A stretch of DNA of 64,000 nucleotides from Holosporales bacterium (GTDB taxonomy: Bacteria > Pseudomonadota > Alphaproteobacteria > Holosporales > CAZGKG01). The notes under the pieces are model-generated. The model did no database searches. It saw only the letters and a list, made by a program, of their open reading frames with translations, and was not told where the DNA came from. The stretch is taken from the NCBI GenBank assembly GCA_044361745.1, contig JBIKIF010000001.1, forward strand, positions 16,104 to 80,103, in the 5' to 3' direction. Shown one piece after another: positions 56,933-59,116 of this stretch. Every line of letters begins with the position of its first letter. Position 1 is the stretch's first letter. Position numbers and translations under genes: made by a program.

Positions 56933-57880
56933 CTAGGTTTTTTTTGCGCCTTGTTTTGCCTGCAGACCTTCTTCCAGTCGTTTGATGCTGGCTTGTACTC
57001 TTTCCGCGTGGGCGAGGGCTTGTTCAGCAGCAAAAGCCGCGAGATCTCCCACACCCCCGGCTGGTGCTGGTTTGCCCTTTTTATCTTTTTTGGGGACTGC
57101 AGCTGCGTCACCAACTGCGGCACCAACTGCCCCACTTCCTCCTTCTCGAAACAGTTTCATCGCGCTTTGAAATTCTCTTCTCAGGGCCGCAATTTCTCTC
57201 ATAATATCTTCCGTAGACATCGAATTGATACTCACAGAGTACTCCGGTCCCGAATCGTCATCTGATTCTCCGGAAGAACTGCTTGGGGGACCCAGTTGCA
57301 TTTGTTTGGTTTTCCCTGTTGCCACTGGCAAAGGAGGCGCTGGTGGGACCCCCTTGAACATTGGTCCGGCTTTCAGTGATTCCGGTGATCCCACTGGCAA
57401 AGGAGGCGCTGGTGGGGGCCCCTTCAACATTGGTCCGGCTTTCAGTGATTCCGGTGATCCCACTGGCAAAGGAGGCGCTGGTGGGACCTTCTTCAACACT
57501 TGCTGTTCTTCCTCCTGAAACGTCACTTTCTTCACAGGGGAGACTTCAGCCCCTGCCCTTGCTCTGCTCTCCTGACGACCGGCGTTTGCCTCACGCAATA
57601 GTCTTTCCTGGCGCTCAGTTGCCGCTGCAGACAGGGAGCTATCATAAGCGGCGGCTGAAGCCAGGAAAGTTTCCTCCTCCTCATCCCAGTCGTCGTCTGA
57701 AGTCTCTGAGCTGTCACTGTTCTCTACCGGACGTCTAGCTTCTTCAGCTTTGCGTGCTTCCTCGGCTTGGCGTCGGGCTTGTTTTGCCTCCACCAATGCA
57801 TTCAAAGCTTTTGAACAAAATGCTTTGGGAGCGAAGGTTCCGGCCAAAAGAGCGCAAAAAATAAGAGATCGTTTATTCAT
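56933..57880 (-). CDS. Hypothetical exported repeat protein, paralogue A (charged helical N-region, PPAPPLP repeats, acidic Ser-rich patch)
   Basis: 315 aa with signal-like MNKRSLIFCALLAGTFAPKAFCSK and EAKQARRQAEEARKAEEARR. It carries 2.4 copies of the 23-aa unit PPAPPLPVGSPESLKAGPM[LF]KG, then SSSSGESDDDSGPEY. No family was recognised. Confidence 0.6.
   Translation of the reverse strand: MNKRSLIFCALLAGTFAPKAFCSKALNALVEAKQARRQAEEARKAEEARRPVENSDSSETSDDDWDEEEETFLASAAAYDSSLSAAATERQERLLREANAGRQESRARAGAEVSPVKKVTFQEEEQQVLKKVPPAPPLPVGSPESLKAGPMLKGPPPAPPLPVGSPESLKAGPMFKGVPPAPPLPVATGKTKQMQLGPPSSSSGESDDDSGPEYSVSINSMSTEDIMREIAALRREFQSAMKLFREGGSGAVGAAVGDAAAVPKKDKKGKPAPAGGVGDLAAFAAEQALAHAERVQASIKRLEEGLQAKQGAKKT
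57322..57498 (-). repeat. 69-bp (23-codon) tandem coding repeat, about 2.4 copies
   Basis: The unit CCACTGGCAAAGGAGGCGCTGGTGGG... begins at 57322, 57391 and 57460. Copies 1 and 2 differ at only a few positions, and copy 3 is partial. Confidence 0.9.
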
Positions 57881-57930
57881 TAAAAAAACTCCTTATTCGA
57901 ACAAGGACTGTGTCCTTATATATTTCATTT

Positions 57931-59049
57931 TTAATCTGTGTCTGAGCTTAAGTAATCCAGTGCCGAATCTTCATCTGATTCTGAGGAAGAACTGCTTGGG
58001 GGATACAGTTGAATTCGTTCGGCTGTCCCTGTTGTCACTGGCAAAGGAGACACTGTTGGTTTACGCCAAAACCGCTTTTGCAATCTACTCAAGCATCCTT
58101 CCTGGTCCCCTTTTAAATTGCAAAGAGGTTCTTCATCCTCGTGCACTTGGGTTGTCATCCTTGTCTTCGGATCCGAAGTGGGGGCTGAACTCACTGCACT
58201 TTCTGTGGTAACCTGAGGACTGGCCGTTGCCGATGCCAGAGGAGAGGCTTTTGGGTCCCCCTTCAACATTGGTCCGGCTGTCAGTGGTTCCGCTGATGGC
58301 TTTTGCACAGGAGAGACTGGAGCCTTTTGGTCTGGACGAGCGGTTTGGGCCCGAGGAGGGAAATACCTCTTGAAAGAGGGGACTGGGGCTCGGGAAGGAC
58401 TTCCTGGCTCCCAATCCTCATGTGATTCTCCGGAAAAACTTCTTGAGGGACTCAATTGCATCGGTCCGGTTTCCACAGGAGAGGCTGAAGCCACTTCCCT
58501 TGCGCTGCTCTCCTTACGACCGGCTTTTGCCTCAGCCAATGCTCTTCGCTGGAGTTCATCTGCCATCGCAGACCGGGAGCTATCATGAGCAGCGGCCGAG
58601 GGCTTTGAATTTGCGCTGGAACTCTGAAGACTGACCGCTGCCTGCGGAGACCGGGAAAGATTATAAGGGGATGATGAGATCGCGCTTTTATCGTATTTGG
58701 GATCCTGACGAGCGGCTTTTGCCTCAGCCCATAGTCTACTCTGGGCTTCGAGTTCCTCCTGAGACACTGGAGGCTGATCATCGTCACCGGCGGCTGAAGC
58801 CGCTCGGCTGGCACTAGCTTTCTTGTCTTGGCGTCTTGCTTCAGCTTTGCGTGCTTCTGGAGCTTGGCGTCGGGCTTGTTTTGCCTCCAGCAATGCATTC
58901 TTTTGGGCTTCTTCAGCTTTGCGTGCTTCCTCGGCTTGGAGTCGGGCTTGTTTTGCCTCCACCAATGCATTCAAAGTTTTTGAACAAAATGCTTTGGGAG
59001 CGAAGGTTCCGGCCAAAAGGGCGAAAAAAATAAGAGATCGTTTATTCAT
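57931..59049 (-). CDS. Hypothetical exported repeat protein, paralogue B
   Basis: 372 aa. Its first 40 or so residues and about 50 bp of upstream DNA are nearly identical to paralogue A. It has a duplicated EAKQAR..EARKAE module, one GPMLKG motif, and two QL.P(P/S)..S(G/S)ES(H/D)ED acidic patches. Confidence 0.6.
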   Translation of the reverse strand: MNKRSLIFFALLAGTFAPKAFCSKTLNALVEAKQARLQAEEARKAEEAQKNALLEAKQARRQAPEARKAEARRQDKKASASRAASAAGDDDQPPVSQEELEAQSRLWAEAKAARQDPKYDKSAISSSPYNLSRSPQAAVSLQSSSANSKPSAAAHDSSRSAMADELQRRALAEAKAGRKESSAREVASASPVETGPMQLSPSRSFSGESHEDWEPGSPSRAPVPSFKRYFPPRAQTARPDQKAPVSPVQKPSAEPLTAGPMLKGDPKASPLASATASPQVTTESAVSSAPTSDPKTRMTTQVHEDEEPLCNLKGDQEGCLSRLQKRFWRKPTVSPLPVTTGTAERIQLYPPSSSSSESDEDSALDYLSSDTD

Positions 59050-59116
59050 TAAAAAAACTCCTTATCAGAACAAAGACTGTGTCCTTATATATTGCCTTTT
59101 TAAGATAAAAAAATGT

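Follow-up and report, generated by a model that had tools for sequence, protein, structure and literature searches.

The window analysed here, a 64-kb stretch of contig JBIKIF010000001.1 (assembly GCA_044361745.1, Holosporales), carries on its minus strand two adjacent genes, A and B, which form a lineage-restricted hypervariable cassette encoding one or two Sec-exported, intrinsically disordered proteins (Table 1). Gene A is the full-length family member, and its product is laid out as a signal peptide, charged helices, an acidic tryptophan patch, three proline units, a Ser/Asp patch and a C-terminal helical hairpin. The N-terminus of A reads MNKRSLIFCALLAGTFAPKAFCSKALNALVEAKQAR and that of B MNKRSLIFFALLAGTFAPKAFCSKTLNALVEAKQAR; over their length the two products share 37% identity with 33% gaps (BLASTP, E = 1e-26), and the divergence sets in past a common head. 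In both genes AAGGAG lies 8 nt ahead of the ATG, the length changes among strains amount to 69 nt and 153 nt, both in frame, and the open reading frame (ORF) is open in every strain, for which reasons the minus-strand frames are taken to be coding. The GC content at third codon positions (GC3) is 0.42-0.44 in A and B versus 0.55-0.62 in polA, accC, dapB, uvrC and glmS, an atypical codon composition. The IMG/NCBI label for A and the public records of its relatives all read 'hypothetical protein'.

Table 1 Positions of the genes and sequence features of the cassette within the 64-kb window
Feature	Position	Strand	Remarks
Gene A	56933..57880	-	315 aa; full-length family member
Gene B	57931..59049	-	372 aa; diverged paralogue sharing A's head
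Shared head, copy A	57738..57934	-	direct repeat, 95% identical to copy B
Shared head, copy B	58907..59103	-	direct repeat, 95% identical to copy A
Palindrome AAGGAC-ACA-GTCCTT	57903..57917	-	~25 nt upstream of A start codon
Ribosome-binding site AAGGAG of A	57889..57894	-	unchanged in 5/5 alleles
Ribosome-binding site of B	59058-59063	-	counterpart of A's AAGGAG
Sec-type signal peptide of A	57815..57880	-	residues 1-22, MNKRSLIFCALLAGTFAPKAFC↓SK (↓, cleavage); by inspection
Sec-type signal peptide of B	58984-59049	-	counterpart of A's
Acidic tryptophan patch of A	57671..57718	-	SDSSETSDDDWDEEEE
Proline-motif array of A	57284..57496	-	residues 129-199, three units
69-nt tandem repeat of A	57322-57498	-	2.6 copies
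Ser/Asp acidic patch, conserved	57233..57283	-	SSSSGESDDDSGPEYSV
C-terminal antiparallel helical hairpin of A	56939..57214	-	residues 223-257 and 278-314; AlphaFold2
72-nt tandem repeat of B	58839..58972	-	1.9 copies; doubles the EAKQAR-QA(E/P)EARKAE helix

The head shared by the two genes is 197 nt long and comprises upstream DNA together with the first ~145 nt of coding sequence. It contains the palindrome, the ribosome-binding site, the signal-peptide-like MNKRSLIF[CF]ALLAGTFAPKAFC↓SK and the helix EAKQAR(R/L)QAEEARKAEEA. The head and the BLASTP match bear out the first-pass annotation of this DNA in that A and B are tandem paralogues with common regulatory DNA and a common signal peptide. 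Its further proposal, a recent duplication that included the promoter, holds for the head only, where synonymous divergence (dS) is 0.09 between A and B against 0.38-0.58 between strains; it fails for the bodies, which with a dS of 0.4-0.9 are as far apart as alleles of different strains. Because the bodies have diverged like inter-strain alleles while the head is near-identical, the duplication would be old, or one copy a captured allele, and the pattern points to a later homogenisation of the head within the genome.

Upstream of both paralogues, the palindrome sits between a TATATA box and the ribosome-binding site. B's copy is imperfect (about 59072-59086), and the element is largely kept in single-copy strains; it could be an operator or a hairpin of the 5' untranslated region. 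The upstream element and the ribosome-binding site are conserved across all alleles. A scan of the coding strand for sigma-70 promoters and terminators gave nothing beyond shuffle expectation.

Signal peptides were assigned by inspection, using as criteria a basic n-region, an h-region of 7-15 residues and small residues at -3/-1. By this measure A has a Sec signal peptide of the signal peptidase I type, with K3/R4 in the n-region, the core SLIFCALLAGTFA of 13 hydrophobic residues (hydropathy peak 2.7) and the cleavage region P-K-A-F-C↓S-K, in which Pro occupies -6 and A-F-C the positions -3 to -1. The homologues carry T-L-Y-G↓Q at the cleavage site, and the signal peptide is conserved in all alleles. 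A lipoprotein was ruled out, as K-A-F-C is unlike the lipobox [LVI][ASTVI][GAS]C and the Cys is absent in the homologues P0002 and P0004. An N-terminal membrane anchor was likewise discarded, since the hydrophobic core of ~13 residues is followed by the cleavage-type A-F-C↓S site.

The middle of A is occupied by the proline-motif array. Each unit consists of [K-x-x]PPAPPLPV followed by either L-K-A-G-P-M-[LF]-K-G or T-G-K-T-K-Q-M-Q-L-G, and the 69-nt tandem repeat encodes the [K-x-x]PPAPPLPVGSPESLKAGPM[LF]KG units. All motifs quoted in the first-pass annotation were found, namely VLKKV, PPAPPLPVGSPESLKAGPM[LF]KG twice along with a third PPAPPLPV, SSSGESDDDS in A and SSSSSESDEDS in B. Against composition-matched shuffles, A holds nine PxxP (mean 2.6), three PPLP (0.01) and four [RK]xxPxxP motifs (0.35), counts that are non-independent in that all stem from one tandem repeat; with this proviso, the eukaryote-like PPLP/PxxP modules described for copy A stand. 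PxxP is not enriched over shuffles in B. Each unit of A fits the class-I SH3 form [RK]xxPxxP (K-x-x-P-x-x-P) as well as WW-type PPLP, and KGPPPAPPLPVGSPESLKAGPMLKG would be a candidate peptide ligand for profilin, SH3, WW or GYF domains of possible hosts. In human VASP, profilin(-actin) is bound with high affinity by the peptide 198-GAGGGPPPAPPLPAAQ-213 (PMC10340426), which serves as profilin ligand elsewhere too (PMC8410842). KGPPPAPPLPV in A and LGPPPAPPLPA in P0002 are identical to this site over 9-10 residues; at the level of sequence, GPPPAPPLP equals VASP 202-210, the proline site of the Ena/VASP type.

AlphaFold2, run with the six-sequence family alignment as input, modelled A with a mean predicted local distance difference test score (pLDDT) of 54, and 176 of the 315 residues scored below 50. 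The model places charged helices at residues 20-48 and 65-112; the hairpin, with block-mean pLDDT values of 79-89, is the sole confidently folded part. The mature chains are hydrophilic (grand average of hydropathy -0.66 for A and -0.93 for B), rich in A, E, S, P and K and nearly devoid of Cys and aromatic residues. Correspondingly, pLDDT and composition both agree with the earlier description of low-complexity, predicted disordered sequence. One tryptophan, W65, is invariant in 6/6 sequences; the surroundings of that residue are acidic in A only (DDDWDEEEE), and B has a separate HEDWE. By sequence inspection, the C-terminus of A lacks a hydrophobic segment. When the A model was compared with the PDB by Foldseek, just generic and uninformative coiled-coil helical hairpins were returned (E >= 0.3), the FadA adhesin being among these weak matches to secreted coiled coils. 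Of these elements, gene B retains LTAGPMLKG as well as the Ser/Asp patch, but the proline motifs have degenerated to PTVSPLPV and DPKASPLA and the C-terminal hairpin is missing. Most likely this copy has diverged, partly decayed or taken on a new function.

No known family had been recognised from the sequence by eye, and the searches agree: a Pfam-A hmmscan at E <= 10 with A, B and seven sub-segments returned noise alone (Hid1, FAM176, CcdA, Aip3p), far under cut-offs. Sequence searches of the PDB yielded chance antibody light-chain matches for whole A (E 0.4-5) and nothing for its repeat segment; phmmer cannot detect a peptide as short as that of VASP. A word-indexed search of 5.8e9 proteins and a full hidden Markov model (HMM) scan of 1.84e9 cluster representatives each found four relatives, all metagenomic and all with the same signal peptide and the same motif set. 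Their contigs all show an rluB-like gene, the gene or genes of the family and dapB-accC-accB, or fragments of that locus. As every relative's contig has the same neighbourhood, the 'family' is one locus in one narrow lineage, and an orphan. When the family alignment was used for pattern scans of the species genomes in GTDB and of JGI metagenomes, EEARKAEEA matches swamped the output and no relative emerged; an exact-DNA scan with the conserved head recovered one contig, already known. The other alleles originate in other ENA and JGI metagenomes. On one contig, L089 (3205-3539; JGI 3300005805), rluB is followed by a B-type head that turns into an A-type body after EEARKAEEA and then by unrelated high-GC DNA; the arrangement is explained either by recombination with loss of B or by a collapsed or chimeric assembly at the 197-nt repeat.

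Divergence between strains

The main comparison was made between the window and contig L081, which stems from a strain of another lake metagenome. The proteins flanking the cassette (Lnt, MFS, HemD, RluB, DapB, AccC, AccB, YacG, Maf and Tim44-like) are 93-99.8% identical between the two, the flanking DNA is 94-96% identical, and the flanks show a nonsynonymous divergence (dN) of 0.001-0.04 with a dS of 0.05-0.15. The locus protein is ~41% identical (tblastn), or ~54% when aligned columns are counted. For this protein, dN amounts to 0.35-0.41, dS to 0.4-0.64 and the dN/dS ratio (omega) to 0.65-0.86, values obtained by the Nei-Gojobori method on short, gappy, low-complexity alignments and thus indicative only. 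Divergence outruns by far what the first-pass annotation could have suspected from the paralogues: between strains, dN exceeds that of the flanks by a factor of 10 to 400. For the well-aligned C-terminal domain, A compared with P0003 gave dN 0.27, dS 0.23 and omega ~1.2. A third allele, P0004, encodes a protein of ~38% identity (BLASTP), although its flanks match those in the window at 94-98% identity, and B is the most distant member, with a dS of ~0.9 versus the alleles of other strains.

Repeat units and gene number both vary among related strains, which was the comparison of copy number that the first-pass annotation had called for. P0001 differs from A by the absence of exactly one 23-aa unit and P0003 from P0002 by an additional unit of 51 aa, and the gene occurs once in other strains and twice in the window. 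The divergence of the locus, several-fold above that of the flanks at synonymous sites, implies that the allelic lineages are old and have been maintained, or imported by recombination, that selection has been diversifying, or both.

Among the divergent full-length proteins A, P0002 and P0004, 37% of the columns are invariant. In the mature protein, the 9-residue EEARKAEEA and the 8-residue PPPAPPLP are the longest runs without any change; smaller fixed islands are the invariant four-residue runs AGRQ and DDSG, one tryptophan and L-x-(A/G)-G-P(-M) after the proline motif. Short fixed islands within fast-evolving, putatively disordered sequence are what linear-motif proteins look like. Together, the comparisons showed a conserved frame, made up of the upstream element, the ribosome-binding site, the signal peptide and the housekeeping flanks, around an enormously diverging mature protein.

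Two further places in the window differ from their surroundings between strains. At 53175-53711 (minus strand) lies a secreted orphan ORF of 171-178 aa, hyp171, whose product combines a signal peptide with a coiled-coil body of high charge and has no Pfam or NCBIfam match; it is 86.5% identical between strains, compared with 96-99% for its neighbours, with an omega of ~0.96. The region 50038-51425 holds orphan ORFs of 224 aa (plus strand) and 218 aa (minus strand) with hydrophobic N-termini and low GC (38-44%); here the inter-strain DNA identity is ~85%, versus 94-96% elsewhere.

Organism and genomic surroundings

The source of the window is a 20-year Lake Mendota plankton co-assembly (IMG taxon 3300059473; PMC11374980). 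It is an ordinary alphaproteobacterial chromosome segment with a GC content of ~50% and a rough coding density of ~85%, and its genes include polA, rne, glmS, uvrC, ettA, accBC, dapB, hemD, lnt, tolC, secB, rpsB-tsf-pyrH-frr and genes for a DUF2497 protein and a Tim44-like protein. For PolA (14314-16992, minus strand), no non-self protein among 5.8e9 exceeds 55% identity, and for UvrC none exceeds 59%; in a PolA scan of GTDB, the best segment reached at most 49% identity. The lineage is without close sequenced relatives save near-identical strains of its own population. The first species-named match of PolA is the amoeba endosymbiont Ca. Finniella inopinata (48%).

Among genes of secretion systems, only GspE/GspF-like and pseudopilin-like ones and TolC were seen in these 64 kb; SecB is encoded in the window as well. 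The regions 1111-6514 and 21710-23194 contain a GspE/PilB-like ATPase, a GspF-like platform protein, orphan ORFs of 269 and 509 aa and two pseudopilin-like ORFs, the GspE/GspF/pseudopilin-like genes scoring far under the equivalog cut-offs. They form a divergent system of the type II secretion or type IV pilus kind, which could be the export route; a way past the periplasm is possible for A and B.

Mobile elements and further orphan genes were noted as well. An IS4/IS5-family transposase is encoded at 36594-37367 (minus strand), and a 98% identical insertion sequence (IS) occupies another locus in L081 (1-472), upstream of a secretin gene, a sign that the IS has moved, or that a rearrangement has taken place, recently between the strains; an IS1595-type fragment is further present near the Tim44-like gene in L081 and L082. 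A tyrosine recombinase/integrase of 345 aa (42392-43557) adjoins tRNA-Pro(TGG) at 43481-43557 and could mark an integration hotspot, or be XerC/D. A terminase large-subunit-like gene (Terminase_6N/6C; 19039-20739, minus strand), followed by a 119-aa ORF, stands isolated among chromosomal genes and may be a remnant of a gene-transfer agent or prophage. Two orphan ORFs without a family match have an outer-membrane look: a porin-like ORF of 490 aa with a signal peptide and a terminal F (17263-18735, plus strand), and a Thr/Ser/Gln-rich ORF of 334 aa with a beta-barrel-like C-terminus (35576-36580, minus strand).

Possible roles of the encoded proteins

We tentatively favour the view that the cassette encodes a secreted or surface-exposed, disordered and multivalent mimic of eukaryotic proline motifs, which may be under diversifying selection outside the contact motifs. 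In its favour are the conserved signal peptide, with SecB, GspE/GspF-like genes and TolC in the window, the predicted disorder, the orphan status, the hypervariability, the varying number of repeats and genes, the fixed motif islands, the VASP-identical site and the atypical GC3. After Sec export, the protein would leave the periplasm or sit on the cell surface, for which the GspE/GspF-type system is a candidate. The PPPAPPLP units would then bind to domains that recognise proline motifs in a eukaryotic host, prey organism or grazer, oligomerisation may come from the hairpin, and antagonistic co-evolution would drive the diversification of all that lies outside the contact motifs.

Several observations weigh against this mimicry. 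The Sec signal takes the protein just to the periplasm, and no autotransporter barrel, anchor, sorting or translocation signal was recognised in A or B. Proline-rich low-complexity strings occur in bacterial envelope spacers too, and the 8-9-residue identity with VASP could be convergence without common function. Besides the merely indicative dN/dS values, the statistics of the invariant runs are modest, at ~0.03-0.09 each by a crude estimate. Nothing about the lake-plankton source shows that the organism meets eukaryotic cytosol, and no eukaryote-like domains were found elsewhere in the window. In a single-gene, unbootstrapped neighbour-joining tree, the long branch of PolA joins uncultured sequences in the vicinity of Finniella and metagenome-assembled genomes of Rickettsiales, a weak grouping; the best named matches of UvrC are the free-living Acidocella and Telmatospirillum (~51-52%), so that the affinity of PolA is not reproduced. 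These marker proteins place the organism no more precisely than as a deep-branching alphaproteobacterium, its affinity to an endosymbiont being weak and inconsistent between markers. As PolA and UvrC disagree and the PolA grouping is weak, a firm claim of host association was rejected.

The main alternative, though somewhat less probable, is that the proteins are envelope or surface proteins with no eukaryotic target, that is, disordered spacers or adhesins in which polyproline II rods act like TonB/OmpA linkers and whose variability comes from phage, bacteriocin or grazer pressure. The Sec signal without any further targeting signal is in line with such a role, the lake source and the mixed affinities of PolA and UvrC leave the lifestyle compatible with it, and the fold of the hairpin shows a weak likeness to generic coiled coils of secreted proteins, for instance the FadA adhesin. 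The charged AEEARKAEEA-type helices are similar to domain II of TolA. Because nearby secreted ORFs such as hyp171 evolve fast too (omega ~0.96), a general arms race at the envelope or surface is suggested. However, no TolA_C, TonB_C, OmpA, LysM, SPOR or other envelope domain was detected by Pfam at E <= 10, and the 13 hydrophobic residues of the N-terminus are too few for a membrane anchor. The retained motif is precisely PPPAPPLP and not a generic (XP)n spacer, and the family is absent from all other bacteria searched (GTDB/JGI scans and the 1.84e9 representatives). Long disordered chains that are acidic and Ser-rich are also unusual among resident periplasmic proteins.

A narrower and improbable version of mimicry is that of a secreted orphan mimic of the C-terminal half of Ena/VASP, which would combine multivalent, VASP-identical profilin-actin sites with a minimal element for G-actin or a second ligand and with an oligomerising hairpin, act on the actin of a protist host or grazer, and owe its hypervariation to host-symbiont conflict.

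The first-pass annotation had also drawn a loose parallel to bacterial WH2 actin nucleators. In this scenario, A would be a nucleator of the WH2/proline-rich motif (PRM) type or an Ena/VASP-like elongator, in the functional class of VopL/VopF, TARP, BimA and Sca2, in which the PRM loads profilin-actin, L-K-A-G-P-M-L-K-G binds G-actin in a WH2-like manner and the hairpin oligomerises. Acidic patches around tryptophan, DDDWDEEEE in A and HEDWE in B, would fit, given their likeness to the acidic motifs by which WASP and ActA bind Arp2/3, but the Trp context is acidic in A alone. GPPPAPPLP is identical to the VASP loading site, the order of the elements mirrors that of VASP (PMC9569871), and a relaxed [LIVM]..G..L[KR] pattern occurs once in A and once in B (shuffle P 0.02-0.04). 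On the other hand, Pfam WH2 (PF02205) gave no match at E <= 10, neither with the whole proteins nor with five isolated segments covering the proline motifs and 'LKAGPMLKG', and the PDB sequence searches were empty too. The LLxxI amphipathic helix of WH2 is missing, its position reading G-S-P-E-S, and a Pro lies inside the element. In other alleles the element is L-E-A-G-P-M-R-L-G, so the LK[KG] ending on which the parallel drew is not conserved, and neither a surface anchor nor a translocator is present. The specific claim of a WH2-type actin nucleator is hence weakened, finds no support in the evidence gathered here and appears very unlikely.

Likewise very unlikely are non-functional or decaying ORFs, i.e. 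drifting, repeat-prone DNA without a selected protein function: the whole-gene omega, the atypical GC3, the orphan status and the truncated B with its lost motifs would suit decay, but the frames are intact in every strain with all indels in frame, no change is seen in the ribosome-binding site, signal peptide or motif islands, and neutral decay since the strain split is ruled out because the divergence of the locus (dN 0.35-0.41, dS 0.4-0.64) is several-fold above the flanking dS of 0.05-0.15.

If the proline units do bind eukaryotic profilin, SH3 or WW domains, the cassette would represent a new, unrelated family of bacterial linear-motif mimics and flag an uncultured alphaproteobacterial lineage of lakes as protist-interacting. 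Were the narrower VASP mimicry true, it would bring to light a hidden lineage of lake plankton associated with protists, together with an actin effector using a Sec/type II secretion-type route. Regardless of this, the locus is a clean natural case of a conserved regulatory and signal-peptide frame enclosing a hypervariable, repeat-shuffling disordered protein. The time series in which the lake species was sampled over 20 years would make the turnover of alleles and frequency-dependent selection directly measurable.

Comparison with known systems

With TonB and TolA of the cell envelope, the proteins share proline-rich and charged-helix (K/E/A) segments. TonB and TolA differ in having an uncleaved N-terminal anchor and conserved C-terminal domains, neither of which was found here in Pfam or the PDB. 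EspF and EspFU (TccP) of attaching-effacing E. coli consist of disordered tandem units that combine a PxxP SH3 ligand with a second short element and vary in copy number between strains, and the 23-aa unit of A with its copy-number variation is an analogue of these. However, the E. coli effectors are type III secreted, lack a Sec signal, are built of 47-aa units and contain an N-WASP-binding helix, and there is no sequence similarity.

Among actin effectors of Gram-negative bacteria, Burkholderia BimA and Rickettsia Sca2 are likewise Sec-exported, with proline-rich sites of the profilin type and a dependence on oligomerisation or repeat architecture (PMC9569871). They differ in having type V beta-barrel translocators and WH2 or formin-like folds, none of which is seen here. 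For a type V autotransporter barrel as in BimA, Sca2 and IcsA, no strands are predicted, the C-terminus is helical and Pfam gave no match; for FH2 or a formin-like fold there was no Pfam match and no folded domain of such size in the AlphaFold2 model.

The resemblance to Ena/VASP lies in the succession of a proline motif, a short Gly/Leu/Lys element and a helical C-terminus, loosely comparable to the succession of proline-rich domain (PRD), G-actin- and F-actin-binding elements (GAB/FAB) and coiled coil (PMC9569871). In contrast to Ena/VASP, the proteins described here have a signal peptide at the N-terminus instead of EVH1 and by profile lack a WH2-like GAB/FAB. Their C-terminus is predicted to form an antiparallel hairpin (223-314), which may oligomerise, rather than a parallel tetramer coil, and they are bacterial and Sec-exported, with undetectable homology.

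Listeria ActA resembles A in its signal peptide, its disorder, an N-proximal acidic Trp patch and tandem proline repeats interleaved with a second short repeat. It differs in that ActA is a Gram-positive protein with FPPPP as EVH1 ligand and a C-terminal membrane anchor, whereas the motif here is PPAPPLP; in A there is no Pfam match to ActA, no [FWYL]PxPP motif and no C-terminal hydrophobic segment. Proline-rich domains recur among bacterial actin effectors (PMC9569871), and in ActA the number of tandem proline repeats controls function (PMC2121076). By analogy, the copy-number variation of the proline units could therefore be functionally meaningful here as well. The sequence family is an orphan outside all known families; if mimicry of eukaryotic proline motifs holds, it would be a bacterial proline-repeat effector or surface protein.

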